From Acetobacteraceae bacterium (lineage in GTDB: Bacteria; Pseudomonadota; Alphaproteobacteria; Acetobacterales; Acetobacteraceae): 64,000 bases of DNA. This document shows, piece by piece, positions 47,161 to 63,654 of the stretch. Numbering within the stretch: the stretch's first letter is position 1; every line of letters starts with the position of its first letter. The stretch is taken from contig JAIYDD010000163.1 of assembly GCA_027487675.1 (NCBI GenBank), forward strand, positions 253 to 64,252, in the 5' to 3' direction. The translations under genes and the position numbers were made by a program. The notes below the pieces were generated by a model that was not told the DNA's origin, did not search any database, and worked only from the letters and a program-made list of their open reading frames with translations.

Positions 47161-47332
47161 GGTCTCAAATCCTTCCTGGGCGCGGTCAAGGGCTGCCGTT
47201 GCCGCTTTCGCCTTGGCGCCGGACTTTCGCTTGGCGCGCTCCTCCGATGGGTCATTCCGTGAAAGGTGCTTGCGCGTCCCAACCTTCTGAGAGCGGCGTG
47301 ACCGAGAAAGTTCCCGTTTCATCTTGGCTTTG

Positions 47333-48727: not shown

Positions 48728-48961
48728 TCCCGTTCCCCGCGATCCGCAGGCCGGAACCACCGGCTTCGCTGCGAATCGTCAGAGATCGTTACCACGGAGT
48801 CCCGCGAATTGCCATGACTGGCGGAAATAGATGTTTCTCTCAGCACATGGAGGAGGTGGCAAACACATTACGCAACCGGGGCGGGAGCGGGAAGCGCCGT
48901 TTCGCCAAGCCTGCGCGGAATGCGCGAACCGCACGCCCGTCCTGGAGCCCCGGCGGCCGGG

Positions 48962-50257
48962 TCAGCGCACCGGCGCCGGCGCGGCCCCGACCGGCACGCC
49001 CACCCGCCCCTCATGCAGCCGCGCCACCGTGCCCGCGACCGCCAGCGCCCGCCCGGCGGCGCCGTAGAACACGCCATGCACCTGCGTCGTCGCCTGCAGC
49101 GCCGCCATGAAGGCGTCCCGCAGCCGCGGCTCGGGCGGCCTTCCCTCCGACCAGAAGGCATCGAGCGAGCCCTGGTGGGTCAGGCCGGGCACGTCCCACA
49201 CCGCCCGTCCGAGCGCCTTCACCGGCCTGCCCAGCGCCAGCGCGCGCATGCCCACCGTGCTGTTCACCGTCAGCAGCCCGCGCGCGCCGGACAGCATCGC
49301 GTCCAGCGGGCCGTGATGCGCGACCAGCACCCTCTCCCGCACCCCGGCCGCCGCGGCGATCGCGGGAATGCGCCGCCCCCAGCGCTTCAGGCAGGGGTCC
49401 AGCGGATGCACCTTGCAGACCAGCCGCGCATCGGCCGGCGCATGGCGGGCGAAGGACCGCACCGTCTCGGCCACCGGCGTGTCCATGTCGCGATAGGGCG
49501 AATAGGCGCGGACGGAGAAGTCGCTTTCCATCTGCATGGCGAAGACCCAGTGCGGATGCGGCGCTGCCAGCGCCAGCACCCGCGCGCCTTCCGCCCGTTC
49601 CGCGCCCCGCCGCAGCAGCCGCCAGCCGATCCCGGCATAGGTCGCCAGCGGGTGGTGCAGGTGGTGGCTGCGGTAGTGCCGGAACGGCCAGGGCAGCATG
49701 GAGGCCAGGTGGTAGGACACGTCCCAGAAGGCCTGCAGGGGAAAACTGTCCGCCAGCCGCGGCTCCAGCTGCGCCGGCGGCAGGCCCCCGGCCAGCGCAT
49801 GGATCGCCGCCGCCTCACGCGGGAACAGGCTGCCGCCGCCCATGGCGGTGCTCTCCAGCGTGATCCAGTCGGGCCGGAAATAGCCGAAATCGGTGACGGT
49901 CACCGCCGCGCCGCGGGCTTCCGCCGCCGCGATCGCCGCGCTGTGGTAGTCCCGCCGCTCGCCCAGCAGCACCAGGTCGGTGATGGCGTGGCGGTCGAGG
50001 TAGGCGCGGATGAAGCCGGGCCAGGCGGCTTCCGGCCCCTGGTACCAGGCCGGCGCCGGCGCGCCGGGGATGCGGCGCCAGAACAGCACGTCGCCCAGGT
50101 TCAGGTGGATGCGGTGCACCTCATGCCCCAGCGCCGCCAGGCTGGCCGCGACCTCGGCGAAGAAAGGGCTGATCGGGCCCTGGAGGAAGAGGACGCGGCG
50201 CCGCCCTGGCGATCCGGCCGGGGGCGCCGGCAGGTCCGAGGTGTCGCGCGCTGTCAT
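48962..50257 (-). CDS. kpsS: capsule polysaccharide biosynthesis protein, KpsS/LipB/RkpJ-type (beta-Kdo transferase family)
   Basis: Trimmed from ORF 48962..50998 to the ATG at 50257 (431 aa). The upstream part of that ORF is the alternate frame of the formyltransferase gene. The N-terminus 'VLFLQGPISPFF..L...L...G..V.RI.LN.GD' and the later 'CKVHPLD' and 'TVNSTVG..AL..G.PV' blocks are as I remember the Capsule_synth family. Confidence 0.7.
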   Translation of the reverse strand: MTARDTSDLPAPPAGSPGRRRVLFLQGPISPFFAEVAASLAALGHEVHRIHLNLGDVLFWRRIPGAPAPAWYQGPEAAWPGFIRAYLDRHAITDLVLLGERRDYHSAAIAAAEARGAAVTVTDFGYFRPDWITLESTAMGGGSLFPREAAAIHALAGGLPPAQLEPRLADSFPLQAFWDVSYHLASMLPWPFRHYRSHHLHHPLATYAGIGWRLLRRGAERAEGARVLALAAPHPHWVFAMQMESDFSVRAYSPYRDMDTPVAETVRSFARHAPADARLVCKVHPLDPCLKRWGRRIPAIAAAAGVRERVLVAHHGPLDAMLSGARGLLTVNSTVGMRALALGRPVKALGRAVWDVPGLTHQGSLDAFWSEGRPPEPRLRDAFMAALQATTQVHGVFYGAAGRALAVAGTVARLHEGRVGVPVGAAPAPVR

Positions 50258-50291
50258 GCCTGCCCATACCTCCCGGGCGCAGGCGGGCCTG

Positions 50292-51089
50292 TCAACGCCC
50301 CGGCGGCATCGCGGTCGCGTGAAGTCCGGGGTTGCGCAGCAGCCGGAGGTCGCCGGCGCGCACCAGCCGCACCCCGCGCGCGGCGGCGTCCCGGATCGCG
50401 GCGCGGTCGGGAAACGGGCGATAGGGCAGCGGCTCGGGCGCCGGGGCGGGATCGGCGCGGCCTTCCGCCAGCGCGCGCAGCGCCTGGCGCAGCGGGTCGA
50501 GCCCCGCCAGGTGCAGCAGCCGCGCCGCTTCCAGCGCCGAGACGCCTTCGGGCAGCGCGACCGGGCGCTGCGCCAGCACCGCGCCGGCATCGATCCGCGC
50601 GACCAGGCGGTGGATGCTGACCCCCGTCTCGCCGCGCCCCTCCGCCAGCGCCCAGAAGGCGGGGATGGGCCCGCGGTGCCGCGGCAGCAGCGAGGGATGC
50701 AGGTTGATCCCCCCGAGCCGCGCCAGCGCCAGCGTCTCGGGCGCCAGGATCTGGTCGAAATGCAGCGTGACGATGAGGTCCGGCGCGGCCTGGCGCAGCG
50801 CGGCGCGGAAGGCCGGGCCGTTGACCTCCGGGACATGGACGAAGGCCGCGCCGGCCGCCGCCGCCGCGTCGCGGTGCGGCCCGCGCCGGAACGGCACGCC
50901 ATAGCCCAGCAGCAGATAGGCGAGCATCGCCGGCCCGGACCGCGCCAGCGCCGCCCGCAGCCGCGCCGGGCCCCGGCCTGCGGGGTCCGAGAGGCCAAGC
51001 AGCACGAGATCCCGGCCGAGGCCGCGCGCGAAGGCCAGCGAAGCGGCGTCGCTGATGACTGAAGCCAGGGTCAGCAGGGCTACGCGCAT
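50292..51089 (-). CDS. formyltransferase-fold protein (Fmt/ArnA N-domain-like)
   Basis: 265 aa. The catalytic region is 'DLIVTLHFDQIL....GGINLHPSLLPRHRGPIPAFWALAEGRGETGVSIHRLVARIDAGAVL'. The Asn, His and Asp of the formyltransferase triad positions are all present. Confidence 0.8.
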   Translation of the reverse strand: MRVALLTLASVISDAASLAFARGLGRDLVLLGLSDPAGRGPARLRAALARSGPAMLAYLLLGYGVPFRRGPHRDAAAAAGAAFVHVPEVNGPAFRAALRQAAPDLIVTLHFDQILAPETLALARLGGINLHPSLLPRHRGPIPAFWALAEGRGETGVSIHRLVARIDAGAVLAQRPVALPEGVSALEAARLLHLAGLDPLRQALRALAEGRADPAPAPEPLPYRPFPDRAAIRDAAARGVRLVRAGDLRLLRNPGLHATAMPPGR

Positions 51090-51114
51090 CGGCGCGGCGC
51101 GGCGCGGGTGGCCC

Positions 51115-51397
51115 GAGAGGGGCGCCGCCCCATAGGCGCTAACTTACGGTCTGCGTTGCACCCGTCGGCCCGGGTGGAGGCTTTGCCTCCCCCCGATACC
51201 CCCCGCCACCAGGGCTGCCGCCCTGGACCGGCATCAGTCAGAAGAGAACCAGATAAGTGAAGGGGGTTCCAAGGGGCCGCTGCCCCTTGGCGGGGTGCAG
51301 GGGCAGCGCCCCTGCCGGAGCGCGAGGCGGAGCCTCGCACCGCCTGCTTCCGCCCCCGAGGAGTTAAGCTAGCGCCTATGGGGCGCCGCCCCTCTCG
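51115..51397 (+). mobile_element. MITE-like repeat, full copy G (inside the PKS operon)
   Basis: The ends 'GAGAGGGGCGCCGCCCCATAGGCGCTAACTTAC' and 'GTTAAGCTAGCGCCTATGGGGCGCCGCCCCTCTCG' are inverted repeats. The interior is the reverse complement of copy C. Extra hairpin modules follow ('CCAAGGGCCgaaaGGCCCTTGG', 'CCAGGGGCCtttcGGCCCCTGG') up to ~51500. Confidence 0.75.
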
Positions 51398-51522
51398 TAC
51401 TCTCCCGGCCAAGGGCCGAAAGGCCCTTGGAACCCGGGGTCCAGGGGCCTTTCGGCCCCTGGCGGGGTGGGTATCGGGAGGGGCGGAGCCCCTCCCGGGG
51501 TCACCGGCGCCCATCCCTCCGC

Positions 51523-52830
51523 TCAGGCCTTCACCGACGCCACCGCCGCCGCCAGCTGCGCCACGGCCTCCCGCAGGTCGGCCTCCTCATGCTCCGCCGA
51601 GAAGAAGAAGCGCAGCCGCGCCGTCTTCTCCGGCACCGCGGGGAAGACGATCGGCAGCGCGTTCACCCCGCGCTCGAGCAGCGCCGCCGAGACCTGCACC
51701 GCCCGCAGCGAGCTGCCCAGCACCACGGGGACGATGCCGAGCCCCGCACTCTCCCCGGTGTCCAGCCCGCGCGCCCGGCAGAGGTCGCGGAACAGCAGCG
51801 CATTGGCCTGCAGCTTCGCCACCCGCCAGGGCTCGGCCGCCATGATGTCGAAGGCGGCGGTGGCGGCCGCGGCCAGCGGCGGTGCGAGGCCCACCGAATA
51901 GACGAAGCCCGGCACGGTGTAGCGCAGCCAGTCCACCAGCTCCGCCCGCGCCGCGACATAGCCGCCGCAGGAACACAGCGTCTTGGACAGCGTGCCCATC
52001 CAGATGTCGATCTCGGCGGGATCGACGCCGGCGGCCTCGAAGACCCCCTTGCCGGTGGCACCGACCACGCCCAGCCCATGCGCGTCGTCCACCATCAGCC
52101 AGGCATCGTGCTTCCGCGCGAGCCGCACGAAGCCCGCCAAATCGGGCACGTCGCCATCCATGGAGTAGTGGCCCTCGACCACCACCAGCGCGCGCTGGGC
52201 GGCGCGCCGGGCACGGGCCAACTCGCGCTCCGCCGCCGCCAGGTCGTTGTGCGGGAAGGGCAGGCGCCGCGCGCCGGAAAGCCTGGCGCCCTCGGTGCAG
52301 GAATTGTGGATGGCCGCGTCGTGCAGCACCAGGTCGCGCGGGCCGACCAGGTGGCCGATGACCGTGACGTTGGTGGCATGGCCGCTGGTCAGCACGAGCG
52401 CCGCCTCCGCCCCGTAATGAGCGGCGATCCGCGCCTCCAGCGCGCCATGCACCGGCCGCTCCCCGCTGACAAGGCGCGAGGCGGAACAGGACACGCCGTG
52501 GCGCGCCATGGCGTCCGCCGCCGCGGCATGGATGCGCGGGTCGCCGTTCAAGCCGAGATAGTCGTAGGAGCCGAAATTGATGACCTCCCGCCCCGCGATC
52601 ACGCTGCGCGCGCCGGCGCGGCCCTCATGGGGGCGGAAATAGGGGCTCTCGATGCCCAGCGCCTCGACGCCGTCGCGCACCAGCGCCCAGTCCTTGAGGT
52701 TCTGGATCGCGCCGAAGCCGCGCGGATCGGCGGCGGCCTGCCTTTCCTGGCCCTCGCGCCGGCGGGCGAGGCGCTGCACCAGGGCGAGACGGGCGGCGCC
52801 GGAGAGGCCGAAGCTGGGGGCGCCGGTCAT
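51523..52830 (-). CDS. PLP-dependent alpha-oxoamine synthase (AONS/SPT/KBL family; RkpG-like acyltransferase)
   Basis: Trimmed from ORF 51523..53226 to the ATG at 52830 (435 aa). Motifs are 'NFGSYDYLGL', 'SGHATN', 'DDAHGLGVVG' and the PLP lysine in 'MGTLSKTLCSCGGY'. Confidence 0.88.
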   Translation of the reverse strand: MTGAPSFGLSGAARLALVQRLARRREGQERQAAADPRGFGAIQNLKDWALVRDGVEALGIESPYFRPHEGRAGARSVIAGREVINFGSYDYLGLNGDPRIHAAAADAMARHGVSCSASRLVSGERPVHGALEARIAAHYGAEAALVLTSGHATNVTVIGHLVGPRDLVLHDAAIHNSCTEGARLSGARRLPFPHNDLAAAERELARARRAAQRALVVVEGHYSMDGDVPDLAGFVRLARKHDAWLMVDDAHGLGVVGATGKGVFEAAGVDPAEIDIWMGTLSKTLCSCGGYVAARAELVDWLRYTVPGFVYSVGLAPPLAAAATAAFDIMAAEPWRVAKLQANALLFRDLCRARGLDTGESAGLGIVPVVLGSSLRAVQVSAALLERGVNALPIVFPAVPEKTARLRFFFSAEHEEADLREAVAQLAAAVASVKA

Positions 52831-52839
52831 GGGGCGGGA

Positions 52840-53200
52840 TGCGCCGATGGCCCGGGGGAGGCGTTGCCTCCCCCGTACCCCCACCACCAGGCCCGGGCCG
52901 GGCCTGGACCGGCGTGTTCGGGACGCAGCGTGGGGCGGGCGCAGGGCGTGGGCGAGCGGGGTGGCTTGCGAGGCTCCGCCTCGCGCTCCGCCAGGGGCGC
53001 TGCCCCTGGACCCCGGCAAGGGACACAGGTCCCTTGCAACCCTTTCAATTGACTTGCCTCGCGCACCCACAGCCAGCGCAGACCGGAACGCACCGCACCA
53101 CCCCGCGCCCACCCAAACCCCCGGGTTCCAAGGGCCTTTCGGCCCTTGGCGGGGAGAGTACGAGAGGGGCGGAGCCCCTCTCGGGCCCGCAGGGAGCCCC
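52840..53200. repeat. rearranged (head-to-head) chimera of MITE-family internal modules, no intact TIRs
   Basis: 52850-52915 matches the forward centre of copy G ('GGAGGCGTTGCCTCC...CCTGGACCGGCGTG'). 52965-53050 matches the reverse half as in copy C ('GCGAGGCTCCGCCTCGCGCTCCGCCAGGGGCGCTGCCCCTG'). 53125-53195 carries the 'CCAAGGGCCtttcGGCCCTTGG' module. Confidence 0.6.
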
Positions 53201-53261
53201 CGCGCCGGCCCGTCGTCGTCACCCACAGCCCCGGCATCGGCAGGTCACTCCTCCTGCGGCG

Positions 53262-56200
53262 TCACTCCGCGGCCACCGACTTGCCCGGCGCGTCTTCCGG
53301 CGCGAAGGTCTCCATCAGCGTCGAGATGGTCGCCGCTTCGGTCGCCGGGTCCAGGGCCGCCGCGGCGATCTGCCGTGCCAGGGCCGCCACGGTCAACTCC
53401 TCGGACAGTCCCGCAATGGGGATCTGTCGCCCGAGCCGCCCTTCCAGCGAGGAGCGCAGTTCCAGCGCGCCCAGGCTGTCGAGGCCGAGCCCCGTCACCT
53501 TCGCCTCCACCCCCACCGCGTCGGGCGGCAGGCGCAGGATGCGGCCGATCTCCTCCTGCGCCAGGCGCAGCACCAGCGCCTCCGCCTCCGCGCGCGGCAG
53601 GGCGGCCAGGCGTTCGCGCAGATCCCCCGCCTCCGCCACCGGCGCCGCCGCCGCCAGCGCCGCGAAGGCGGGCTCGGCGAAGACCGGCAGCGCGATGCGG
53701 GCGTCCCCGGGGTTCAGCCGCACCAGCAGCGGCGCGGCATGCGGCGCGGCGAGCATGGCCGGCAGGGCCGACAGCGCTTCCTCCGCCGTCATCGCCGCCA
53801 CGCCGAGCCGCCGGCGCAGCGCCTCCGCCTTGCCGGCATCGGCGGCCAGCCATCCGGCATCGGCGATCGGCCCCCAGCCGACGCAGAGCGCCGGCTTCCC
53901 CGCCGCGCGCCGGCGCCGCGCCAGGGCTTCCAGCGCCGCATTCGCCGCCACGTAGTTCGCCTGGCCCGGATTGCCGAAGGCGACGGTCGCCGAGCCGAAC
54001 AGCAGGAACAGCGACAGCGGATCGCCCGCGGTCAGCCGGTCCAGGTTCTCCGCCGCGGCGAGCTTCGGCGCCAGCGCCCGCCGGAAGCGCGCCGCGTCCA
54101 TCGACAGCGCCGCCCCGTCCTCCAGCACGCCGGCCGCATGCACCACGCCGCCGATCGGCCGCGCCGCGCGGATTTTTGCAAGGGTCGCCGCCAACGCATC
54201 GGCATCCGAAGCATCGCAGGCGTGCAGCGCCGCCTGGGCGCCGAGCGCCGCAAGGTCCCGCAGCGCCTCCGCATGTCCGGTCGGGCCGGCGCGGCGCGCC
54301 ACCAGCGCCAGGTGCCGGGCGCCCTGCCGGGCGAGCCATTTGGCGCAGGCCAGCCCGAAGCCCCGCGTGCCGCCCACGACGACGATGGTGGCCTCCGCCG
54401 GCGGCGCCCAGGGCGCGGCGGCGGCCGGGCGGGGTGCCGGCGGGCGGATCACCAGCTTGCCGATATGGGCGGAGGCCTGCAGCGTCCGGAACGCCGCCTC
54501 CACCTCGCCCGCGCCGAAGACGGCGAAGGGCAGCGGGCGGAAGGTCTCCTCCCGCAGCGCTTCGCGGATGCGCGCCAGCAGGCGGGCGGCATGCGCCGGG
54601 CGGGCGCGCGGCAGTTCGTCGACGTCCACCGCGAACCAGGTCGCGTTGCGGCGCAGCGCGCGGAAGGGCGTGCGGCGGTTCTCCACGAAGTCGCGCTTGC
54701 CGAGCTCCACGAACCGCCCGAAGGGCCGCAGCAGGCCGAGGCTGCGCTCCATCGCCTCCCCGGCCAGGCTGTTCAGCACCACGTCCACGACGCCTTCGCC
54801 CGCGCCCCGCCCACCCCATTCCGCGCGCAGCGCATCGGCGAAGCCGGGGTCGCGGCTGTCCAGCACCAGCTCGGCACCGGCCGCGCGCAGGAAGGCGCGC
54901 TTGGCGGGCGTGCCGGCGGTCATCGCCACCCGCGCGCCGATCGCCTGCGCCACCTGCAGCGCGGCCAGCCCGACGGCACCGGCGCCGCCATGCACCAGCA
55001 GCGTCTCGCCCGGCTGCAGCCGGGCGCACTCCTCCAGCGCGTGCAGGGCGGTCAGGAAAGCCACCGGCATGGTCGCCGCCGCCTCCGGCGCCATTCCCTC
55101 CGGCAGCGGCGCCAGCGCCTCCGCCCGCGTCACCGCGCGCGCGGCGAGCGCGGCCGGCGCCACGCCGAACACCCGCTGCCCCGGCCGCAGCGCGACGCCG
55201 GGCCCGGCTTCCTCCACCACGCCCGCGCATTCCATGCCGAGCGTCGGCCCGGCGAAGCCGACGGCCAGCAATTCCTCCGGCAGCAGCCCCTGCGCCCACA
55301 TCAGGTCGCGGAAGTTCAGCCCCGCGGCCTCGACCCGGATCGCGACCTCCCCCGGCCCCGGCCGGCGCGGCGCGGGGGGCCGCCAGCCCAGCGTGCCGAG
55401 CCGGCCCGGCTGCCCGACCTCCAGCGCCAGCGCGCCCCCCGGCGGCGGCAGCGCCAGCCCCGGCACCAGCCGCGGCACCAGCCGGGCGGTGGCGGCCAGC
55501 GCGACTTCCGGCTCCGCCTCCGCCGCCTCCAGCTCGCCGGCCAGGCGCCGCGCCGCGGCATCGGGGCGCAGCTCGGGCGCCAGGTCGATGCGCCGCGGCC
55601 GCAGCGCCGGCATCTCGTTGGCCAGCACCCGCGCCAGGCCCAGCAGCGCGGCGGCTTCCGGCGCGTGGCGGCCCTCCGCCGGCTGCGCGCCGCCCGCCGT
55701 CACCAGCACGAAGCCGGCCGCGCTGCCGGCCGCCGCCTCGGCCAGCCGCACCAGCCCGGCCAGCGTCTCCGGCAGCGACGCCGCGTCGGGCGCCAGCAGC
55801 GCCAGCACCCGCGCGCCGGCCAGCGCCCGGGGTGCCGGCGCCGCGCCGAACTCCAGCCGCTCCACCGCCGCCCCGCGGGAGCCGAGCAGCCCCGCCAGCG
55901 CATCGGCCAGCGCCCGGCCGCCGGCATCGGCGACCAGCACGCTGCGCGGCGGCGCCGGGCGCGCGGCGGGGGGCGGCGGCGGCGCCTCGGCCGCGACCAG
56001 CGCGGCGGGCCAGGGGGCGCAGGGCAGCGCCTCGGCGCTCGCGGCCCGGAATCCCGCCGCCTCCAGGCTGCCGAGCCAGAGCGCGGCGTCCGGCAGCGAC
56101 CCGCCCTGCGATCCCGGCGCCGGCGGCGGGCCGAGCCCGCTCCACCATTCGGGGTCCTGCCCGCAGGCGAAGGTCCAGGCGCGGCCCGGCAGCGGCTCGG

Positions 56201-59200
56201 CCAGCAGCAGCGCGCCGCCCTCGGCCAGCGCCGGGCGCAGCGCCGCCGCCAGCCGCGCGCCGGCCCGCCCGCGCGCCGCCGGCGCCAGCCCCACCACCAG
56301 GTCGGCGACGATCGGCGGCGGCGTGCCGGCGTCCGGGTCCCAGACCGCGCTGTCCAGCGCCATCCCCGGCGGGGCCGGCGGCAGCGGCACCCGCGCCTCC
56401 CCGGAAGCGACGTAGCGCACCTGCCGCCCGAGCGGCGCCAGCCGCGCCACGACCCGCCGCGCCAGCGCATCGCCGGCCGCCGAGACTTCCAGGATCCGCA
56501 GCGGCCGCGTCTCCGGCCAGGCGGCGGCCAGCGCGGCGACGGCCGCGGCCAGCGCATCGGCCAGCCGCCCGAAGGCGGCGCCCTGGGCGGGCGGCGGGGC
56601 GGCGCCGTGGCGCCCGCCCTGCAACGCCGACGGCAGCGCCTCCATCGCCTCGGCCAGCCAGGCGAGGTCGAGCGCCAGTTCCGGCCGCTCCGCCAGGATG
56701 GCGCGCCAGATCTCGGCGGCCGGCGGCAGCGCCTGGTCCGGCAGCAGGCGGAAGCCGGACGGCGTCGCCTCCGCCGCCCCGTCCTCGACCAGGGCGCGGC
56801 GCAGGAAGGCCTGGTAGGCGGCGGCCTCCGGCGCGGCGGCGGCCAGCGGCATCGATTGCGCGGCGGCGGCCACCATCGCCTCGACCAGCAGCGCCACCTC
56901 CGACAGGTCGCGCGACGCCGCCTCCCGCGCCGCGGCATCCACCGCCACGCCCAGGGCCGGCGGCGGCGGCGCGCCTTCCGCGGCGGGCACCCAGTCGATG
57001 CGGCTGGCGATCTCGGCCGCCGGCGCGGCGCCGGGCAGGGCGATGCGCCAGAACTCCGCGCCCTCGGCCACCGCCACCGCGCGCCCGGCGCCGTCGCGCA
57101 GCACCAGCCGCGCCTCCGCCGAGCGCGTGCCGAGCCGCGTCACCTCGAGCTCCGCCGCCACCGCCGGCGCGGCGCCGGGCAGCGCGACCAGCCGGGCGAC
57201 GCGCACCGGCACCACCCCGGTGCCGTCGGGGATGTCCGGCGCCAGCAGGCCCAGCAGCCCCTGGAAGGCCCCGTCCAGCCGGGACGGATGCAGCAGGAAG
57301 CCGGCATCCGGCGGCGCCGCCTGCGGCAGGGCGAGCTCCACCCGCGCACGCCCGGCCGCGCGGTCCGCCGCCACCGACGCCACCGCCGCGAAGGCCGGGC
57401 CGTAGGCCAGGCCGAGCCGGGCGGCGACGGCGCGCACCGCCTCCCCCGCCACGGGCTCCGCCGCCGCGACCGGCAGGGGCGGCACGGCGAGCGCGTTGGC
57501 CGAGCCCGGCCGCGCCTCGGCCAGGGCATGCAGGGTCCAGCCCTCCTCCGCCAGGCGCCGGCGGCTTTCCAGCCGGAAGGCGCCCTCGGGCGAGAGGCTG
57601 CAGCGGACCTCGCGCGCCCGGGACGTCTCCAGCGGCAGGGCGCGCAGGATGCGGAATTCCGCGAGTTCCAGCGCCGCGGCATCCGGGTGGCAGGCGCGCG
57701 CCGCGGCCAGCGCCATGTCGAGCATCGCCGCCGCCGGCAGGACCGCATCGGGCCCCAGCCGGTGGTCGGCCAGCCAGGGCGCGGCTTCCGTGTCGAGCGC
57801 GCGGGTCCACACCCCGGGCTCGGCCCCGGCGCGGCGGAAGCCCAGCAGCGGATGGTCCTCGACGGGGTCCACGATGCGCAGGCTTTCGGGGGTGGCGGCG
57901 TGCCAGGCGCGGATGCGGTGGAACGGGGTCGGCGGCAGGCGGCGTTCCGCGGGGCCGGCGAAGGCCGGGCCCTCGCGCGGGTCGGCGCCGGCGGCGAAGG
58001 CGCGGTCGGCGGTGGCGGCGAAGGGGTCCTCGCCGGCCGGGTCGCGGCGCGACAGGCTGGGCAGGCAGGCGGCCGGCAGCCGCGCGGCGCGGCAGGTCTC
58101 CCGCAGGTAGGATTGCAGGACGGGGTTGGGCCCGATCTCCAGGAACAGCCGCGCGCCCTGCGCCAGCGCCGCGCGCATGGCGGCCTCGAAGCGCACCGGC
58201 TGGCGCAGGTTGCGCCACCAATAGGCGGGGCCCGCCTCGCCCGCCGCCAGCGCCGCGCCGGTGACGGTGGAGAGCATCGGCAGGGCCGGCGCCGCCGGCC
58301 GCAGCCCGGCCAGCTCCGCCAGCAGCCCGTCGCGCGCGGGGTCCATCGCCGCGCTGTGGAAGGCGTAGTCCAGGTCGAGCCCGATCCAGCCGATGCGCCG
58401 CGCCTCCGCCCGTTCCCGCACCACGGCAAGGTCGGCCTCCGGGCCCGCCAGGGTGACGGAGCCGGGCGCGTTCAGCGCCGCGACCTCCACCGCCGTGCCG
58501 GCAACCAGCGCGGCGGCTTCCTCGGCCCCCGCGGCGAGCGCGGCCATCCGCCCCTGTCCGCGCAGCAGGTGCTGGTGGCGGCTGCGCGCCACGATCAGCC
58601 GCGCGGCATCGCCCAGCCCGAGCACCCCGGCCGCCAGCGCGGCCGCGACCTCGCCGACCGAATGGCCGAGCACCATCGCCGGCCGCAGCCCCTGCCCGGC
58701 CAGCGCGTCCAGGCTCGCCGCCTGGATCGCGAAGAGCAGCGGCTGCGCGCGGTCGGTGGCGGCCAGTTCCTCCGCCGTGACGCCGGCCTCGATCCGCGCC
58801 ATCGGCGACCAGCCGAGCAGCGGCGCCAGCGCCCCGTCCACCCGCGCCAGCGCCGCACGGAACGGCGCGGAGGCGGCCAGCGCCGCCTGCGCCATGCCCG
58901 CATGCTGCGCGCCGTTGCCGGCGAAGACGAAGCAGGCCGGCGCGGCGCCGGTATCGGCGGCCAGCCCCGCGGCGACGCCGGGCGCCGCGCCGTCGCGCGC
59001 CCAGCCATCGAGCGCCGCGGCCAGCGCCGCCCCGTCCGCCCCGCGCAGCGCGAGGCGATGCGGCAGCAGGTCGCGGTGCCGCGCCGCGCCGCGCGCGAGT
59101 GCGGCCGCCTGGCGCGGGGCCGCGCCGGCCAGCCGGTCGCGCCAGGCGCCGGCCAGGGCCTTCAGCCCCTCCGCAGAGCGCGCCGAGAGCAGCAGCGGCG

Positions 59201-60869
59201 GCGCCCCGCCCGCCTTCGGCGCGCGCCGCCGCGGCGTGGCGGGGGCGGGGCCGAGCAGCACGCAGGCATTGGTGCCGCCGAAGCCGAAGGAATTGACGCC
59301 CGCCACCGCATCCGCCGGCGCGTCCAGCGGCTCCGCCAGCGCGGGGACGCGGATGTTCAGCGCTGCGTAGTCGATGTGCGGGTTGGGTGCCGACTGGTGC
59401 AGCGTCGGCGGCACCACCCGCTTCGCCAGCACCAGCATGGCCTTGACCAAGCCGGCGATGCCGGAGGCGGGCTCCAGGTGGCCGATGTTCGACTTGATCG
59501 AGCCGATCGGCAGCGGCGAAGCGCGTCCCGCCGCCGCGGCGCTGCCGATCGCCCAGGCCTCCATCGGGTCGCCGACGGAGGTGCCGGTGCCATGCGCCTC
59601 GAAATAGCCGATGCGGTCGGGGCCGATGCCGGCTTCCGCCATCACCCGGCGGATCAGCGCGGCCTGGGCGTCGCGGTTGGGCAGCGACAGGCCGATGGTC
59701 CGCCCGGCGCTGTTCACCCCGCTGCCCAGGATGACGGCGCGGATGGCATCGCCGTCCCTGAGCGCCGCATCCAGCGGCTTCAGCAGCAGCGCGCCCGCGC
59801 CTTCCGCCCGGACATAGCCGTCCGCCGCCGCATCGAAGGCCCGGCACCGCCCGGTGGGGGAGAGCATGCCGGCGCGGGAGAAGCCGCCGAAGGCGAAGGG
59901 CGAGAGCAGCAGCTGCACGCCGGCCGCCACCGCGACCTCGACCCGCCCTTCCGCCAGTTCCCGGCAGGCGCGGTGCAGCGCGACGAGCGAGGAGGAGCAG
60001 GCGGTGTCGATCGTCTCCGCCGCGCCGCGCAGGTCGAAGACATTGGCGATGCGGTTGGACAGGATCGACAGCGCGTTGCCGGTCATGAAATACCGGTCGG
60101 CGCCGGCATAGTCCTGCAGCCGGAGTTCCGCGTAGTCGGTGGACGACCCGCCGACGAAGACCGCCGCCTCCCGCCCCGCCAGGGCGGAGGCGCGCCAGCC
60201 GGCATCGTCTATCGCGTGCTGGGTGACTTCCAGCAGCAGGCGCTGCTGCGGGTCCATCTCGGCGGCTTCGCGCGGGGAGATGCCGAAGAAGGCGGCGTCG
60301 AAGCCGGAAACGTCGCCGAGATGGCCGGCGGCATGGGTGTAGCCGCGCCCCGGCTCGCCGCGGCGGGGATGCAGGAAGGCGGCCTGGGGGAAGCGGTCCT
60401 GCGGCAGGGTGGAGACGGCGTCGCGGCCGCTGGCCAGCAATTCCCAGGCGGCATCGAGGCCATCGGCCCCGGGCAGCCGGCAGGCCGCGCCGACGATGGC
60501 GATGGGCACCGCCCTGCGGCGCGCGGCATCCACGCCCCCGCGGGACGCGGCATCCACGCCCCCGCGGGACGCGGCATCCACGCTTCTGCGGGGCGCGGCA
60601 TCCACGCCCCCGCGGGACGCGGCATCCACGCTTCTCCGGGGCGCGGCATCCACGCTTCTGCGGGGCGCGGCATCCACGCCCCCGCGGGACGCGGCATCGA
60701 CGGCCCTGCGGGGCGCGGCATCCACTCCCCCGCGGGGCGCGTCATCCACGGCCCTGCGGGACGCGTCATCCACGGCCCTGCGGGACGCGTCATCCACGGC
60801 CCTGCGGGACGCGTCATCCACGGCCCTGCGGGCCGGGGCAGCCCGTGGAGGACGAGCGCTGCGGGACAT
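53262..60869 (-). CDS. type I polyketide/fatty-acid synthase, single fully reducing module KS-AT-DH-psiMT-ER-KR-ACP, no thioesterase (RkpA-like)
   Basis: Trimmed from the 2800-aa ORF 53262..61664 to ATG 60869 (2535 aa), because the upstream part overlaps the GT4 gene in another frame. Every domain has recognisable motifs (see the domain features). The start may instead be GTG ~60509, just before 'PIAIVGAACRLPG'. Confidence 0.93.
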   Translation of the reverse strand: MSRSARPPRAAPARRAVDDASRRAVDDASRRAVDDASRRAVDDAPRGGVDAAPRRAVDAASRGGVDAAPRRSVDAAPRRSVDAASRGGVDAAPRRSVDAASRGGVDAASRGGVDAARRRAVPIAIVGAACRLPGADGLDAAWELLASGRDAVSTLPQDRFPQAAFLHPRRGEPGRGYTHAAGHLGDVSGFDAAFFGISPREAAEMDPQQRLLLEVTQHAIDDAGWRASALAGREAAVFVGGSSTDYAELRLQDYAGADRYFMTGNALSILSNRIANVFDLRGAAETIDTACSSSLVALHRACRELAEGRVEVAVAAGVQLLLSPFAFGGFSRAGMLSPTGRCRAFDAAADGYVRAEGAGALLLKPLDAALRDGDAIRAVILGSGVNSAGRTIGLSLPNRDAQAALIRRVMAEAGIGPDRIGYFEAHGTGTSVGDPMEAWAIGSAAAAGRASPLPIGSIKSNIGHLEPASGIAGLVKAMLVLAKRVVPPTLHQSAPNPHIDYAALNIRVPALAEPLDAPADAVAGVNSFGFGGTNACVLLGPAPATPRRRAPKAGGAPPLLLSARSAEGLKALAGAWRDRLAGAAPRQAAALARGAARHRDLLPHRLALRGADGAALAAALDGWARDGAAPGVAAGLAADTGAAPACFVFAGNGAQHAGMAQAALAASAPFRAALARVDGALAPLLGWSPMARIEAGVTAEELAATDRAQPLLFAIQAASLDALAGQGLRPAMVLGHSVGEVAAALAAGVLGLGDAARLIVARSRHQHLLRGQGRMAALAAGAEEAAALVAGTAVEVAALNAPGSVTLAGPEADLAVVRERAEARRIGWIGLDLDYAFHSAAMDPARDGLLAELAGLRPAAPALPMLSTVTGAALAAGEAGPAYWWRNLRQPVRFEAAMRAALAQGARLFLEIGPNPVLQSYLRETCRAARLPAACLPSLSRRDPAGEDPFAATADRAFAAGADPREGPAFAGPAERRLPPTPFHRIRAWHAATPESLRIVDPVEDHPLLGFRRAGAEPGVWTRALDTEAAPWLADHRLGPDAVLPAAAMLDMALAAARACHPDAAALELAEFRILRALPLETSRAREVRCSLSPEGAFRLESRRRLAEEGWTLHALAEARPGSANALAVPPLPVAAAEPVAGEAVRAVAARLGLAYGPAFAAVASVAADRAAGRARVELALPQAAPPDAGFLLHPSRLDGAFQGLLGLLAPDIPDGTGVVPVRVARLVALPGAAPAVAAELEVTRLGTRSAEARLVLRDGAGRAVAVAEGAEFWRIALPGAAPAAEIASRIDWVPAAEGAPPPPALGVAVDAAAREAASRDLSEVALLVEAMVAAAAQSMPLAAAAPEAAAYQAFLRRALVEDGAAEATPSGFRLLPDQALPPAAEIWRAILAERPELALDLAWLAEAMEALPSALQGGRHGAAPPPAQGAAFGRLADALAAAVAALAAAWPETRPLRILEVSAAGDALARRVVARLAPLGRQVRYVASGEARVPLPPAPPGMALDSAVWDPDAGTPPPIVADLVVGLAPAARGRAGARLAAALRPALAEGGALLLAEPLPGRAWTFACGQDPEWWSGLGPPPAPGSQGGSLPDAALWLGSLEAAGFRAASAEALPCAPWPAALVAAEAPPPPPAARPAPPRSVLVADAGGRALADALAGLLGSRGAAVERLEFGAAPAPRALAGARVLALLAPDAASLPETLAGLVRLAEAAAGSAAGFVLVTAGGAQPAEGRHAPEAAALLGLARVLANEMPALRPRRIDLAPELRPDAAARRLAGELEAAEAEPEVALAATARLVPRLVPGLALPPPGGALALEVGQPGRLGTLGWRPPAPRRPGPGEVAIRVEAAGLNFRDLMWAQGLLPEELLAVGFAGPTLGMECAGVVEEAGPGVALRPGQRVFGVAPAALAARAVTRAEALAPLPEGMAPEAAATMPVAFLTALHALEECARLQPGETLLVHGGAGAVGLAALQVAQAIGARVAMTAGTPAKRAFLRAAGAELVLDSRDPGFADALRAEWGGRGAGEGVVDVVLNSLAGEAMERSLGLLRPFGRFVELGKRDFVENRRTPFRALRRNATWFAVDVDELPRARPAHAARLLARIREALREETFRPLPFAVFGAGEVEAAFRTLQASAHIGKLVIRPPAPRPAAAAPWAPPAEATIVVVGGTRGFGLACAKWLARQGARHLALVARRAGPTGHAEALRDLAALGAQAALHACDASDADALAATLAKIRAARPIGGVVHAAGVLEDGAALSMDAARFRRALAPKLAAAENLDRLTAGDPLSLFLLFGSATVAFGNPGQANYVAANAALEALARRRRAAGKPALCVGWGPIADAGWLAADAGKAEALRRRLGVAAMTAEEALSALPAMLAAPHAAPLLVRLNPGDARIALPVFAEPAFAALAAAAPVAEAGDLRERLAALPRAEAEALVLRLAQEEIGRILRLPPDAVGVEAKVTGLGLDSLGALELRSSLEGRLGRQIPIAGLSEELTVAALARQIAAAALDPATEAATISTLMETFAPEDAPGKSVAAE
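53370..53627 (-). other. PKS acyl carrier protein domain (aa ~2415-2500)
   Basis: The phosphopantetheine site is 'GLGLDSLGALEL' (S2465). Only ~35 aa follow before the stop, so there is no TE, R or C domain. Confidence 0.88.
53850..54398 (-). other. PKS ketoreductase domain (aa ~2158-2340)
   Basis: 'IVVVGGTRGFGL', 'VVHAAGV' and the catalytic Tyr in 'GQANYVAANA'. Confidence 0.85.
54444..55442 (-). other. PKS enoylreductase domain (aa ~1810-2142)
   Basis: MDR fold with the NADPH loop 'LLVHGGAGAVGLAALQVA', 'GMECAG' and 'GKLVI'. Confidence 0.85.
55995..56852 (-). other. degenerate methyltransferase-like (psiMT) region (aa ~1340-1625)
   Basis: It occupies the position of C-MT/psiME in FAS-like megasynthases. 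The SAM motif I is decayed to 'ILEVSAAGD', compared with the consensus (V/I)LE(V/I)GxGxG. Confidence 0.5.
57030..57887 (-). other. PKS dehydratase domain (aa ~995-1280)
   Basis: 'HPLLG' (H1006), 'LPAAAMLDMAL' and 'HPSRLDGAFQ' (DxxxQ). Confidence 0.8.
58065..58937 (-). other. PKS acyltransferase domain (aa ~645-935), malonyl-type
   Basis: 'FVFAGNGAQ', the active Ser in 'GHSVGE' (S737) and the specificity motif 'YAFHS'. Phe at the third position is the malonyl signature, in contrast to YASH. Confidence 0.85.
59250..60512 (-). other. PKS ketosynthase domain (aa ~120-540)
   Basis: 'PIAIVGAACRLPG', active-site Cys in 'DTACSSS' (C291), 'EAHGTGT' (H426), 'SNIGHLEPASG' (H464) and 'NSFGFGGTNA'. Confidence 0.9.
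60519..60830 (-). repeat. 13 x 24-bp tandem repeat at the 5' end of the PKS reading frame
   Basis: On the plus strand the units are 'GCGGCATCCACGCCCCCGCGGGAC' and 'GCGTCATCCACGGCCCTGCGGGAC' variants, head to tail. In the PKS frame they encode R(R/G)(A/G/S)VD(D/A)A(S/P/R) x13 (aa 14-117). Confidence 0.9.
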
Positions 60870-60937
60870 CGCCTCAGACCAGGGGCGCGGAACGGGACGC
60901 GGCGGTTCGGGACGCGGCGGATGGGCCGCCGGCGGGG

Positions 60938-62212
60938 TCAGGCCCCGCCATCTTCGCGCCGCTGCACGCCGATGGCGGGCACCCGCGGGCGGCTGGCGAT
61001 GGCCGGCAGCGGCCGCGGGCCGGCGGGCCGCCCGACCAGGCTGTCGAGCATGCCTTCCACCTGGCGGAAATGCTCGTCCCAGCTCGGGGCGCGCCATTGG
61101 CCGAGCCGCGCGAGCTGCGCGCGGCGCGCCAGGCTGTCCGGGCGGGCATAGTCCAGCACCGCGCTGCGCCAGGCCGCGCCGTCCAGCGGGTCCAGGTAGT
61201 CGGGGACGCCGCGCCCCACCTCCCGCAGTGCCGGCAGGTCGGAGACGATGGCCGGCACGCCAAGCGCCAGCGCCTCGCCCAGCGGCAGGCCGAAGCCTTC
61301 CGCGAAGCTGGGCAGCAGCAGGGCGCGGGCGCCGCGCAGCAGCGACGCGACCTCGCGGTCCGGCAGGGCGCCGGCTTCCCGCACCAGGCCGTCCAGCGCC
61401 GCGCAGCGCTCCAGCATGTCGAGGACGTTCTCGTTCTCCCAGCCGCGGCGGCCGACCACCACCAGGCGTGGCGCGGCCGCGCCATGGGTGCCGGCCAGGT
61501 GCCGCCAGAGGTTCAGCAGCAGCAGGTGGTTCTTGCGCGGCTCGATGGTGCCGAGGGCGACGAAATAGGGCCGGATCGCGACCGGCGGCTCCTCCACCTG
61601 CGGAAGCTCGACGCCGAGGGGGGCCACCACCAGCGGCGGCTCCGTCGCGCGCGCCGCCAGCCACGGGCCGAGTTCCTTGCCGGTGGCGGCGGAGTTGACG
61701 ACGATCGCATCCGCCAGCGCCGCGGTGGTGGCGATGCGGCGCCGGTGCTTCTCCGCCTGGCCGGCGCGGGCGAATTCCGGGTGCTGCATCGGGATCAGGT
61801 CGTGGATCAGCGGCACGAAGTGGCAGCCCTGCCGGCGCAGCGCGGCGATCAGGGCGGGGCGTTCCAGCGCGCGGTGGGACACCAGCAGGAAGATCTTGTG
61901 GCCCGGCCGGCGCAGCGCCTCCGCCAGGGCGCTGCGGCCGAAGGGCAGCGCCAGGCGGGCGCGCCGCACCACGGCGGCGGCCGAGGCGGTGCCGCTGGCC
62001 CAGCTGGCTTCGATCGCCTGCACGAGGTCGCGCACCAGCGCGATCGGCAGCGCCGCGAAGCCGACCAGCGGCAGTTCGGCGACGAAGGTGGTGCGGTCCG
62101 CGGATTGGAAGGCCCAGTGGCGGGCATAGGCGAGTTCGACGCGATCAATGCCGGTCGGGGCGGGCCGACGGGCCACGGTGAGCAGGCGCGAAATATCGAG
62201 GATGACCTGCAC
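60938..62212 (-). CDS. glycosyltransferase family 4 (GT-B, group 1)
   Basis: ORF 60938..62314. The likely start is GTG 62212 (SD 'GAGGG'), just before 'VILDISRLL...GIDRVELAY'. ATG 62266 or 62314 are also possible. The EX7E region is 'PSFAEGFGLPLGEALALGVP'. Confidence 0.85.
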   Translation of the reverse strand: MQVILDISRLLTVARRPAPTGIDRVELAYARHWAFQSADRTTFVAELPLVGFAALPIALVRDLVQAIEASWASGTASAAAVVRRARLALPFGRSALAEALRRPGHKIFLLVSHRALERPALIAALRRQGCHFVPLIHDLIPMQHPEFARAGQAEKHRRRIATTAALADAIVVNSAATGKELGPWLAARATEPPLVVAPLGVELPQVEEPPVAIRPYFVALGTIEPRKNHLLLLNLWRHLAGTHGAAAPRLVVVGRRGWENENVLDMLERCAALDGLVREAGALPDREVASLLRGARALLLPSFAEGFGLPLGEALALGVPAIVSDLPALREVGRGVPDYLDPLDGAAWRSAVLDYARPDSLARRAQLARLGQWRAPSWDEHFRQVEGMLDSLVGRPAGPRPLPAIASRPRVPAIGVQRREDGGA

Positions 62213-62345
62213 GCTGACCCTCGACCCCCGCTTCTGCTGCGAACACAATCTCAACAACGCAACCATGGGTTTAAGGTTTCCCCTGCCCATCCGCGCTGCG
62301 CGATTGCTTCGCATCCTGTAGAACAGAACGCGCGATACGCTGCGT

Positions 62346-62357
62346 CACAATATTGTG
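62346..62357. promoter_or_regulatory. perfect 12-bp palindrome in the 5' region of the GT4-PKS operon
   Basis: 'CACAATATTGTG' lies in a locally AT-richer stretch upstream of the GT4 start. Confidence 0.3.
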
Positions 62358-62401
62358 CAGCGCGGAACCGCGCGTCAATCGCACATTTGTCGCGCGGTCC
62401 G

Positions 62402-62417
62402 TTGCATTTTGGTGCAA
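62402..62417. promoter_or_regulatory. inverted repeat TTGCA-N6-TGCAA upstream of the GT4-PKS operon
   Basis: 'TTGCATTTTGGTGCAA' has 5-bp arms. The binding factor is unknown. Confidence 0.25.
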
Positions 62418-62534
62418 TGCCCAGGATCGCAGCGCCGCGTGCATGCGCCGCGCGCAGCCCGGGCACACGTGTTGCGTGCAGATGCGGACAGCATCGGCGG
62501 CGGAGGCGCCGCCCACCCGCCGCACAGGGCGCGA

Positions 62535-63554
62535 TCAGTCGCCGTCCGGGCGGATCACGTTGCTCGGGATGCCGAGTAGCAAATTGTCCCGCATCGTCTC
62601 GGCGCTCTTCCGCCGGATATCGGCCCAGGCCTCCGGCGTGTGGAAGGCGCTGTGCGGCGTCACCACCAGGCGGCCGGCCAGCCAGGGCTCGCGCCGCCGA
62701 TAGGCCTGCAGCAGCGCCGGCGCCGGCTCCGGCGGCGGCTCCACCGGGATCACGTCGAGCCCGGCGCCCGCCACATGCCCCGACCGGAGCGCCGCTTCCA
62801 GCGCATCGAGGTCGAGGCTGGTGCCGCGTGCCGTGTTCACCACCACCGCGCCGGCCGGCAGCTGCGCCAGCTGCGCCGCCCCCACCAGCCCGCGCGTCAG
62901 CCGCGTGTCCGGCACGTGGATCGACAGCACGTCCGCATGCCGCATCAGCTCGTCGAGCGTCCGGCACCGCCCGATGCCGAGCGCCCGATCCGCGCCGTTC
63001 GGCAGGAAGGGGTCGAAGAAGGCGACCTTGAAGCCGAAGGCCTTGGCGCGCAGCGCGACCGCCGTGCCGATCCGGCCGAGGCCCAATATGCCGAAGCCCT
63101 GCACCTCCGCCCGGCGGATCAGCGGGTGGTCGAGGTAGCGCCAGGGTGCCGGCGGGTCGGCGCGCTGCAGGTCATGGTGCAGCACGATGCCCCGCCGCAG
63201 CGACAGCGCCAGCGCCATCGCGTGGTCCGCCACCTCCATCGTGCCGTAGTCGGGGACGTTGCAGACGGTGATGCCGCGCGCCGCGCAGGCCGCCCGGTCC
63301 AGCCGGTCGTAGCCCACGCCGGTGCGCACCACGACCTTGAGCCGGGGGAACCGCGCGACATGGTGGGCGCGCAGCCAGTGGCGGAAGACCAGCAGCCCGT
63401 CGACGCGCGCGCAGACCTCGTCGGACAGCGCATCGAGGCTCCCGGTGTGCGGCGCGCCGCCGCGCAGCAGCTCAACCTCCGGCCCCAGGATCTCCTGCTC
63501 GAGCGCCGCGTCGGGGTACATCGCCTCGGGCTCGAGGACCGTCAGTCGCGCCAA
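62535..63554 (-). CDS. C-terminal-binding-protein-like D-2-hydroxyacid dehydrogenase
   Basis: 339 aa with a TTG start. Motifs are 'GYDRLD', 'VCNVPDYGTMEVADHAMAL', 'GILGLGRIG', 'VVNTARG', 'AGLDVIPVEP' and 'VTPHSAF'. Confidence 0.85.
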   Translation of the reverse strand: MARLTVLEPEAMYPDAALEQEILGPEVELLRGGAPHTGSLDALSDEVCARVDGLLVFRHWLRAHHVARFPRLKVVVRTGVGYDRLDRAACAARGITVCNVPDYGTMEVADHAMALALSLRRGIVLHHDLQRADPPAPWRYLDHPLIRRAEVQGFGILGLGRIGTAVALRAKAFGFKVAFFDPFLPNGADRALGIGRCRTLDELMRHADVLSIHVPDTRLTRGLVGAAQLAQLPAGAVVVNTARGTSLDLDALEAALRSGHVAGAGLDVIPVEPPPEPAPALLQAYRRREPWLAGRLVVTPHSAFHTPEAWADIRRKSAETMRDNLLLGIPSNVIRPDGD

Positions 63555-63654
63555 ATCCGCCTCCCCTCCCGCCGGCGTGGCCGGCTGGCGGCACGATGCG
63601 CCGGCGAGCCCTCGGGCGACAAGCCGGGGTGGCGGCGCGGGGCGGCCGCAGCCG

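Follow-up and report, generated by a model that had tools for sequence, protein, structure and literature searches.

A capsule-lipid type gene cluster of the rkp-1/wcb kind in Acetobacteraceae, with formyltransferase, glycosyltransferase and dehydrogenase partners

We analysed a 64,000-nucleotide stretch (the window) of contig JAIYDD010000163.1, from an Acetobacteraceae bacterium (assembly GCA_027487675.1). Near one end of the window, a run of minus-strand genes encodes a GT4 glycosyltransferase, a type I polyketide synthase (PKS), a pyridoxal phosphate (PLP)-dependent alpha-oxoamine synthase (AOS), a stand-alone formyltransferase-fold protein (FMT) and a KpsS-type transferase of the capsule sugar Kdo. 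As the window has a G+C content of about 75%, genes were placed by a third-position GC frame plot rather than by the length of open reading frames (ORFs). The frame signal tracked these five successive genes and a sixth immediately upstream, which encodes a D-2-hydroxyacid dehydrogenase (Table 1). A preliminary description had reported five co-directional minus-strand genes with intact motifs; frame plot, Pfam and motif searches agree with it on those five, but the conserved unit has six genes. The cluster is genuine and intact, and is of the kind represented by rkp-1 of Sinorhizobium and wcb of Burkholderia. Since the 1990s, modules combining PKS, AOS and KpsS have been known in the symbiosis of Sinorhizobium (rkp-1) and in the capsule of Burkholderia pseudomallei, a virulence factor (wcb). 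The source organism lies within the Roseomonas/Falsiroseomonas group of Acetobacteraceae.

Table 1. Features of the cluster, in window coordinates
Feature	Position	Strand	Basis
D-2-hydroxyacid dehydrogenase, 339 aa, TTG start	62535..63554	-	Pfam 2-Hacid_dh_C 7.8e-42
Sigma-70-like promoter match, TTGACG-18-AATATT, between dehydrogenase and GT4 genes	62349..62378	-	consensus match only
GT4 retaining glycosyltransferase	60938..62266 (442 aa) or from ATG 62212 (424 aa)	-	Pfam Glyco_trans_1_4 and Glycos_transf_1, ~1e-15
24-bp tandem repeat, 13.7 copies, between GT4 gene and KS domain	60512..60840		Tandem Repeats Finder (TRF)
Single-module fully reducing type I PKS, RkpA/WcbR type	53262..60509 (alternative ATG 60869)	-	Pfam
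431-bp spacer, REP-like hairpin repeats	52831..53261		repeat families shared with 51090-51522
PLP-dependent AOS, 435 aa, RkpG/WcbT type, serine palmitoyltransferase-like	51523..52830	-	Pfam Aminotran_1_2 3e-48
433-bp spacer, three copies of REP-like hairpin	51090..51522		
Stand-alone formyltransferase-fold protein (FMT), 265 aa	50292..51089	-	Pfam Formyl_trans_N PF00551 7e-21
KpsS/RkpJ-type beta-Kdo glycosyltransferase, 431 aa	48962..50257	-	Pfam Capsule_synth PF05159 3.5e-65

The PKS has the domain order KS-AT-DH-(linker/pseudo-KR region)-ER-KR-ACP, as determined from Pfam and motif scans. Its motifs are intact (DTACSS, HGTGT, NIGH, DPQQR, GHSVG, the DH histidine, the ER nucleotide motif and GLDSL). 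The same scans found no thioesterase or reductase domain, and the C-terminus lies 70 residues past the ACP. The protein aligned colinearly with S. meliloti RkpA at 38-40% identity, and with the PKS of a Pseudomonas wcb-like plasmid locus at 37% over 98% of its length. The preliminary description had given the PKS as 2535 aa, a length that we replace by about 2415 aa as the more likely one. In the alignment, RkpA Met1 pairs with residue 121 of the longer reading. Homologous PKSs are 2384-2441 aa long and follow the GT4 gene at gaps of 17-175 bp, and residues 1-120 of the longer reading are encoded by the 24-bp tandem repeat (TRF score 434, 87% matches), which runs in frame with the PKS as 8-aa units (RRAVDDAS / RGGVDAAP). 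The pairing of RkpA Met1, the homologue lengths and the repeat together indicate that the start is probably GTG 60509. A repeat-bearing N-terminus from ATG 60869 is kept as the alternative because the repeat retains a coding-like GC pattern in that frame. The repeat was not present in the relatives examined, indicating that it is peculiar to this genome. Its copy number could vary, and with it PKS translation or the PKS N-terminus. A Logan contig carrying an identical GT4 gene (L086) stops about 135 bp past that gene.

The AOS was 51% identical to S. meliloti RkpG over 413 residues, and its PLP lysine is conserved (GTLSKT). The nearest solved structure is the serine palmitoyltransferase (SPT) of Sphingobacterium (2e-65). 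However, the protein fell under the curated NCBIfam equivalog cut-offs for BioF, Kbl, SPT, ALAS and CqsA-type enzymes: it scored 347 bits on TIGR00858 (BioF) against a cut-off of 426, 203-297 bits on the SPT equivalogs against cut-offs of 500-670, and a weak 154 bits on the CqsA-type model against a cut-off of 428. No bio genes were found in the window by Pfam and the survey of window genes. On scores and context, we rejected biotin synthesis, sphingolipid synthesis and quorum signalling as functions of the AOS. The preliminary description had envisaged that the AOS or PKS might turn out to belong to a bioF setting or another characterised pathway. This did not arise, given the scores below cut-off, the lack of bio genes and SPT as the best solved relative.

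The FMT consists of the N-terminal catalytic domain followed by a short conserved tail (LPYxxFP); Pfam detected no C-terminal domain of the Fmt or ArnA type. Its best match in both sequence and structure is the formyltransferase domain of ArnA, which N-formylates UDP-Ara4N in the modification of lipid A. The two aligned at 7e-22 with about 25% identity, and the NLH...D signature, with its Asn-His-Asp triad, and the SLLP motif are common to both. N129, H131 and D167, together with HPSLLPRHRGP (containing the folate-binding SLLP motif) and the LPYxxFP tail, were invariant in 15 family members; we take the three residues to correspond to N102, H104 and D140 of ArnA. An AlphaFold2 model of the FMT (pLDDT 87) gave ArnA-FT, Fmt and WbkC as the top Foldseek matches, with TM scores of 0.6-0.67. 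All scores on the NCBIfam subfamilies (Fmt, PurN, ArnA and sugar N-formyltransferase) were well under cut-off, the best being 90 bits against 316. Most likely, the FMT is active as an N-formyltransferase and belongs to an undescribed subfamily. Unlike ArnA, it lacks a C-terminal domain and a fused decarboxylase, it is not accompanied by Ara4N pathway genes, and its conserved neighbours are PKS, AOS and KpsS.

The KpsS-like protein was 44% identical to S. meliloti RkpJ and spanned positions 13-389 of the 390 in NCBIfam model NF050054, with a score of 166 bits against an equivalog cut-off of 600. Its QxxxD and HP motifs were invariant in 8 homologues. The QxxxD nucleophile and the HP motif characterise retaining beta-Kdo transferases (PMC10148158). 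A sequence search of solved structures with this protein alone gave no match, and a profile of the family reached the KpsC and WbbB structures weakly. The GT4 protein has a GT-B C-terminal domain (PF13692 and PF00534) with an EX7E motif, FAEGFGLPLGE, and its solved relatives, MshA and PimA, are weak ones. The gene that the preliminary description had placed at 60938-62212 was confirmed as a gene; in the database gene call it starts at 62266, and the 442-aa database protein (P0121) is 100% identical. Look-ups of the exact FMT sequence and of the 424-aa reading of GT4 gave no match. The dehydrogenase is CtBP/PGDH-like, with CtBP1/2 as its best solved relatives (2e-45). A homologue of 335-340 aa lies directly upstream of the GT4 gene in all four relatives checked (L087, L088, L089 and L090) while the genes beyond it differ, which makes the dehydrogenase the sixth member of the conserved unit. 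Another sequence resembling D-2-hydroxyacid dehydrogenases lies on the plus strand at about 45640-46332, between oligopeptide ABC genes and a MarR gene; tblastn gave 33% identity to the clustered copy. The 393-aa minus-strand ORF that overlaps it (45556-46737) gave no Pfam match and is probably not a real gene.

Direct alignment to the S. meliloti locus corroborated the likeness to rkp-1 that the preliminary description had drawn from composition. The two loci share a fatty-acid synthase (FAS)-like single-module PKS, followed by a PLP enzyme resembling 8-amino-7-oxononanoate synthase and SPT, and a KpsS-type Kdo transferase. In S. meliloti the order is rkpA-rkpG-SDR(RkpH)-LtaS-like(RkpI)-rkpJ-kpsF, with rkpU nearby, where SDR denotes a short-chain dehydrogenase/reductase. 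A gene for an SDR and one of the LtaS family thus stand between rkpG and rkpJ, and in the window the pattern is reversed: a tblastn search of the window gave no RkpH/WcbP-type SDR, whereas no FMT, GT4 or D-2-hydroxyacid dehydrogenase gene lies within 12 kb of S. meliloti rkp-1. No RkpI/WcbQ-type LtaS was found in the window or in those relatives that have KpsS directly after FMT. An LtaS-type gene was found in Sinorhizobium, in Burkholderiaceae and in relatives in which FMT is followed by a divergent LtaS gene. The SDR and LtaS-like proteins of relatives gave no informative NCBIfam family and no 3-ketosphinganine reductase signal. The rkp-1 sequence was taken from GenBank CP090106.1 (S. meliloti Ak57, 3.72 Mb), which is labelled 'plasmid pSymB'; it is presumably a mislabelled chromosome, as we take murA, secD and rkp-1 to be chromosomal.

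The Burkholderia-type core, wcbO-P-Q-R-S-T, comprises KpsS, SDR, LtaS-family protein, PKS and AOS beside export genes of the kpsMTED type. We compared the window with several loci of this type: 1) on Paraburkholderia dioscoreae pII, KpsS-SDR-LtaS-PKS-LpxC-like-AOS-GNAT adjoins kpsMT and kpsE; 2) on Caballeronia insecticola p2, the order is SDR-LtaS-PKS-LpxC-like-AOS-kpsDMTE; and 3) a Pseudomonas plasmid carries PKS-AOS, a dioxygenase, KpsC, GNAT, LtaS, SDR and KpsS. A Shinella plasmid carries PKS-AOS-SDR-methyltransferase with capsule genes. The window PKS was 37-40% identical to the wcb-type PKSs of Paraburkholderia, Caballeronia and Pseudomonas. An LpxC-like deacetylase, a GNAT protein or both (and a dioxygenase in Pseudomonas) stand in the place of FMT in wcb-type loci, which have no GT4 or dehydrogenase partner. 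The preliminary description had not recognised GT4 and FMT as members of rkp-1, and neither was present in the Sinorhizobium, Paraburkholderia, Caballeronia, Pseudomonas and Shinella versions examined. The PKS-AOS-KpsS core therefore recurs in Alpha-, Beta- and Gammaproteobacteria while the tailoring genes vary by lineage. The literature searched gave nothing specific on the combination of FMT or GT4 with PKS-AOS.

The rkp and wcb clusters have been recognised as homologous capsule-lipid modules (PMC3908369). The wcb module is assigned to capsule lipid biosynthesis, and a paper of 2025 states that little is known of the wcbPQRT proteins (PMC11766843). The capsular polysaccharide (KPS) of S. 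meliloti 1021 is poly-Kdo on a lipid anchor, and rkpA mutations affect KPS (PMC5539429); that paper cites Müller 2009 for a requirement of rkp-1 for secretion. The preliminary description regarded the rkp-1 lipid product as structurally undefined, which is right in part, as a phospholipid anchor has been reported for this poly-Kdo KPS (Fraysse 2005, as cited in PMC5539429). Initiation of E. coli group 2 capsule, by KpsS and then KpsC on phosphatidylglycerol, involves the same Kdo-transferase family (PF05159, GT107-like, QxxxD and HP motifs). However, the E. coli acceptor is an ordinary membrane phospholipid, and E. coli has no PKS, AOS or FMT. In sphingoid-base synthesis, SPT is the closest enzyme to the AOS among solved structures, yet the locus has no ceramide synthase or other sphingolipid genes, and the acyl chain would come from the ACP of the PKS itself, not from acyl-CoA or a free-standing ACP. 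Fumonisin synthesis by Fum1 and Fum8 offers an example of offloading from a PKS by an AOS, and the window likewise has a thioesterase-less PKS followed by an AOS.

The distribution of the cluster was investigated by a scan with one genome per species, which detected the FMT family in 183 genomes; we mapped the best 80 loci. AOS lay directly upstream of FMT, preceded by PKS and GT4, in 46 of the 73 loci with sufficient upstream sequence. Among the 52 loci with both flanks, 33 had AOS and KpsS, 2 had AOS only, 3 had KpsS only and 14 had neither. The AOS gene directly followed the PKS gene in nearly all mapped loci having both. The dehydrogenase-GT4-PKS-AOS-FMT(-KpsS) unit is thus conserved over dozens of Acetobacteraceae species, indicating that it is lineage-wide and not peculiar to the source genome.

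Two architectures predominated. One, as in the window, is GT4-PKS-AOS-FMT-KpsS, which in three species is followed by a divergent SDR-KpsC pair and KpsM-T-E-D; the SDR gene stands beside kpsC in loci L032, L044 and L046. In the other, seen in Roseomonas fluvialis as well as in 13 loci of the scan, a divergent LtaS(-SDR)-KpsS-KpsC set comes after FMT, and then KpsM-T-E-D. In at least 16 species loci, kpsC and kpsMTED directly adjoin the module. Context in relatives thus supports the capsule link proposed in the preliminary description, as the GT4-PKS-AOS-FMT block there adjoins kpsS-kpsC and kpsM-T-E-D. In Methylobacterium (L078 and L085), KpsS, KpsC, SDR and FMT lie beside a divergent AOS-PKS pair. 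The closest named relative, Falsiroseomonas sp. HW251 (65-78% identity), has its PKS locus on one contig and a kpsD-E-T-M/kpsC-SDR locus on another contig of the same assembly. KpsC homologues were also found in many species with a stand-alone PKS locus. R. mucosa and R. gilardii have KpsC homologues as well. The split in HW251 and the occurrence of KpsC in stand-alone-module species indicate that the system is often divided into two loci. After KpsS, the HW251 locus (L001 12182-20792) continues with GT2 genes, a methyltransferase-GT fusion, and genes for an epimerase/dehydratase, a GHMP kinase, a nucleotidyltransferase, a SIS isomerase and a HAD phosphatase. These include a heptose-nucleotide pathway set, which we take to resemble the 6-deoxy-manno-heptan capsule genes of B. 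pseudomallei.

The analysis shows which genes the locus contains, that their catalytic motifs are intact, that three of the proteins are homologous to RkpA, RkpG and RkpJ, and that linkage to kpsC and kpsMTED is conserved in relatives. We propose, with a probability of about 0.7, that the locus supplies the lipid acceptor, and so forms the initiation half, of a group-2-like capsule system that depends on an ABC transporter and is of the rkp-1/wcbO-T kind. The variant would be one typical of Acetobacteraceae (relatives of Roseomonas and Falsiroseomonas) and would work by a stepwise amino-lipid mechanism. An amino-lipid product, its N-formylation, its glycosylation and the addition of Kdo are steps that we infer from the chemistry of the enzyme families. 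The same holds for iteration by the PKS, for release by the AOS, for the choice of amino acid, for what FMT, GT4 and the dehydrogenase act on, and for the sequence of the steps.

In the proposed mechanism, the single-module fully reducing PKS would iterate like a fatty-acid synthase, building a long saturated acyl chain on its own ACP, where the chain would stay because there is no thioesterase. A decarboxylative condensation with a small amino acid, catalysed by the SPT-like AOS, would free the chain as a 2-amino-3-keto long-chain base. Such AOS-mediated release fits a PKS that has no thioesterase or reductase domain and whose gene is directly followed by an AOS gene. The keto group would then be reduced, probably by the RkpH-type SDR encoded beside kpsC in relatives or, alternatively, by the clustered D-2-hydroxyacid dehydrogenase. 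FMT may formylate the free amine with N10-formyl-tetrahydrofolate as donor. We assign it tentatively to the lipid amine because, of the conserved enzymes near FMT, AOS alone generates an amine, and because GNAT and the LpxC-like deacetylase, two of the tailoring enzymes encoded in other lineages, handle N-acyl groups. GT4 would attach a hexose to the lipid, and the KpsS-type enzyme would use CMP-Kdo to place the first beta-Kdo. Extension and export of the polymer would then fall to KpsC, serotype-specific transferases and KpsMTED, presumably encoded elsewhere in the genome. This scheme is weakest on what FMT, GT4 and the dehydrogenase act on.

Several observations weigh against the capsule-initiation reading or its details. 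The window yielded no kpsC, kpsMTED, RkpH-type SDR or RkpI-type LtaS gene; as the source contig is just 64.5 kb long, the missing kpsC and kpsMTED are uninformative. The 14 well-flanked FMT loci without nearby AOS or KpsS are mostly from freshwater Roseomonas-like metagenome-assembled genomes with the order hisD-FMT-SDR. In genomes of this freshwater group (L008-L011, L013, L014, L016-L020, L022, L026-L028, L030, L031, L036 and L048; checked in L017 8657-11591), FMT orthologues are 51-56% identical, with PKS, AOS and KpsS absent within 10 kb, so that either the module is dispersed there or the formyltransferase has a second role. Three further loci pair FMT with KpsS without PKS-AOS; such pairing occurs in AR75 and Paraburkholderia ferrariae. 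FMT loci of this sort imply that the FMT substrate may be PKS-independent, and the characterised close structural relatives of FMT all use nucleotide-sugar amines or Met-tRNA rather than lipids. The score of the KpsS-like protein lies so far under the E. coli KpsS cut-off that its acceptor could differ. PKS similarity alone fails to separate RkpA-type from other FAS-like PKSs: in full-length comparison, a Paracoccus PKS without an AOS partner scored 931 bits against 1210 for RkpA. The family assignment was therefore based on the AOS, the KpsS protein and context. Finally, given the repeat-filled spacers of about 430 bp, the cluster may be transcribed in more than one unit.

We next consider what the partner enzymes act on. 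Within the capsule-initiation reading, a more specific proposal is that the acceptor of KpsS is not phosphatidylglycerol; instead, it would be a PKS-derived sphingoid-like long-chain amino-lipid with an N-formylated amine and a glycosylated hydroxyl, and the tailoring genes of each lineage (FMT in one; GNAT, LpxC-like and methyltransferase genes in others) would be interchangeable steps of one ancient pathway. We hold this proposal tentatively, and think it more doubtful than not. A rival arrangement, which we think unlikely, keeps the PKS-AOS lipid and the capsule role but has FMT, GT4 and the dehydrogenase act on the carbohydrate side. There they might make or attach, for example, an amino sugar bearing an N-formyl group, or a glycerate-type residue, as an adaptor that joins the polymer to the Kdo primer. 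Consistent with this, FMT is closest among solved structures to nucleotide-sugar N-formyltransferases (ArnA and WbkC), it stands beside KpsS, KpsC or GT4 without PKS-AOS in L021, L074 and L067, and GT4 enzymes usually take sugar or lipid-linked sugar acceptors. By contrast, no conserved sugar aminotransferase or dehydratase lies beside FMT in any architecture. The dehydrogenase-GT4-PKS-AOS-FMT block also stays constant while the downstream polysaccharide genes vary by species, whereas an adaptor enzyme would be expected to follow serotype.

We also asked whether the product could serve outside a capsule. In the window and in most FMT-KpsS architectures, the module stands amid housekeeping genes with no export genes within 10 kb, and the KpsS-like protein has diverged from E. 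coli KpsS, as might be expected if the product were a free outer-membrane glycolipid, Kdo- and hexose-bearing and sphingolipid-like, rather than a capsule anchor. This is improbable in view of the contiguity with kpsC and kpsMTED in relatives. In addition, stand-alone-module species still encode KpsC, which adjoins kpsMTED in HW251, and the rkp-1 homologues affect S. meliloti KPS (PMC5539429). That PKS and AOS make a diffusible small molecule, either a CqsA-like alpha-hydroxyketone signal or an amino-polyketide secondary metabolite, with KpsS adjacent by chance, is the least probable explanation, and we give it hardly any weight. The AOS family does include autoinducer synthases, which agrees with the weak CqsA-type match of the window enzyme, and similar FAS-like PKSs occur in non-capsule settings on Paracoccus and Deinococcus plasmids. 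However, linkage of PKS-AOS to KpsS-family genes extends over three classes of Proteobacteria, the AOS is 51% identical to RkpG, and the locus has no conserved regulator, receptor or exporter typical of signal systems.

If the amino-lipid proposal is true, the anchor would represent a new chemical class of capsule anchor and would indicate what RkpA and WcbR make. FMT, GT4 and the dehydrogenase have well-understood chemistry and so constrain the structure of the lipid, predicting a free amine and a glycosylatable hydroxyl. The predicted mass signature on the long-chain base is +28 Da for formyl, +162 Da for hexose and +220 Da for Kdo. The cluster is thus a tractable lead on a long-unsolved lipid, not a new kind of system. 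Roseomonas is a genus of opportunistic human pathogens.

The intergenic regions of the cluster were also examined. The gap of 34 bp between FMT and KpsS is the sole tight coupling in the cluster. Both long spacers, between PKS and AOS and between AOS and FMT, are filled with hairpin repeats, with inverted and direct repeat families common to both; an example is CCAAGGGCCTTTCGGCCCTTGG at 53128. The hairpin core, CCAAGGGCC-N4-GGCCCTTGG, occurs in 8 copies in the window against 0.17 expected, all of them intergenic (8592, 11543, 11750, 51269, 51409, 51441, 53128 and 63828), and the cores sit inside longer inverted and direct repeat families of up to 76 nt. Relatives have 0-130 bp at the PKS-AOS and AOS-FMT positions. 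The repeat is a dispersed element resembling repetitive extragenic palindromes (REP) or miniature inverted-repeat transposable elements, and it has enlarged the two spacers to their present size. The frame plot showed no coding signal in the spacer at 52831-53261. A 144-aa ORF at 51080-51514 was rejected as a gene, as it sits in the other repeat-filled spacer and has no coding frame signal. The sigma-70-like match (62378-62349) was unique within 47000-64000, where shuffled sequences gave a mean of 0.1, and is a consensus match only. No Rfam family was found in 48800-64000, and terminator-like sites in the region were no commoner than in shuffles.

Downstream of the cluster lie an M17 aminopeptidase gene, a MarR regulator gene and an oligopeptide ABC system, and the remainder of the window holds housekeeping genes. 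The PKS loci on Paracoccus and Deinococcus plasmids were considered as relatives of the cluster and rejected as unrelated systems. On plasmid p3 of Paracoccus sp. SCSIO 75233 (L092 8935-18423), a FAS-like single-module PKS gene is followed by genes for a 418-aa protein annotated as 'peptide deformylase' and a glycosyltransferase, with no AOS; this is apparently a different and undescribed arrangement of PKS-glycolipid type. Two further gene sets were seen on the minus strand of the window. Positions 8679-14266 encode a MoxR-type AAA ATPase, a DUF58 protein and a BatA/DUF4159 protein, forming a Bat/aerotolerance-like operon, of which a neighbouring 716-aa ORF without a Pfam match (6246-8396) is possibly a part. 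A multisubunit cation/proton antiporter of the Mrp/Mnh type lies at 25837-31099, with a fused MbhD/MbhE/Proton_antipo_M subunit of 966 aa and a second Proton_antipo_M subunit.

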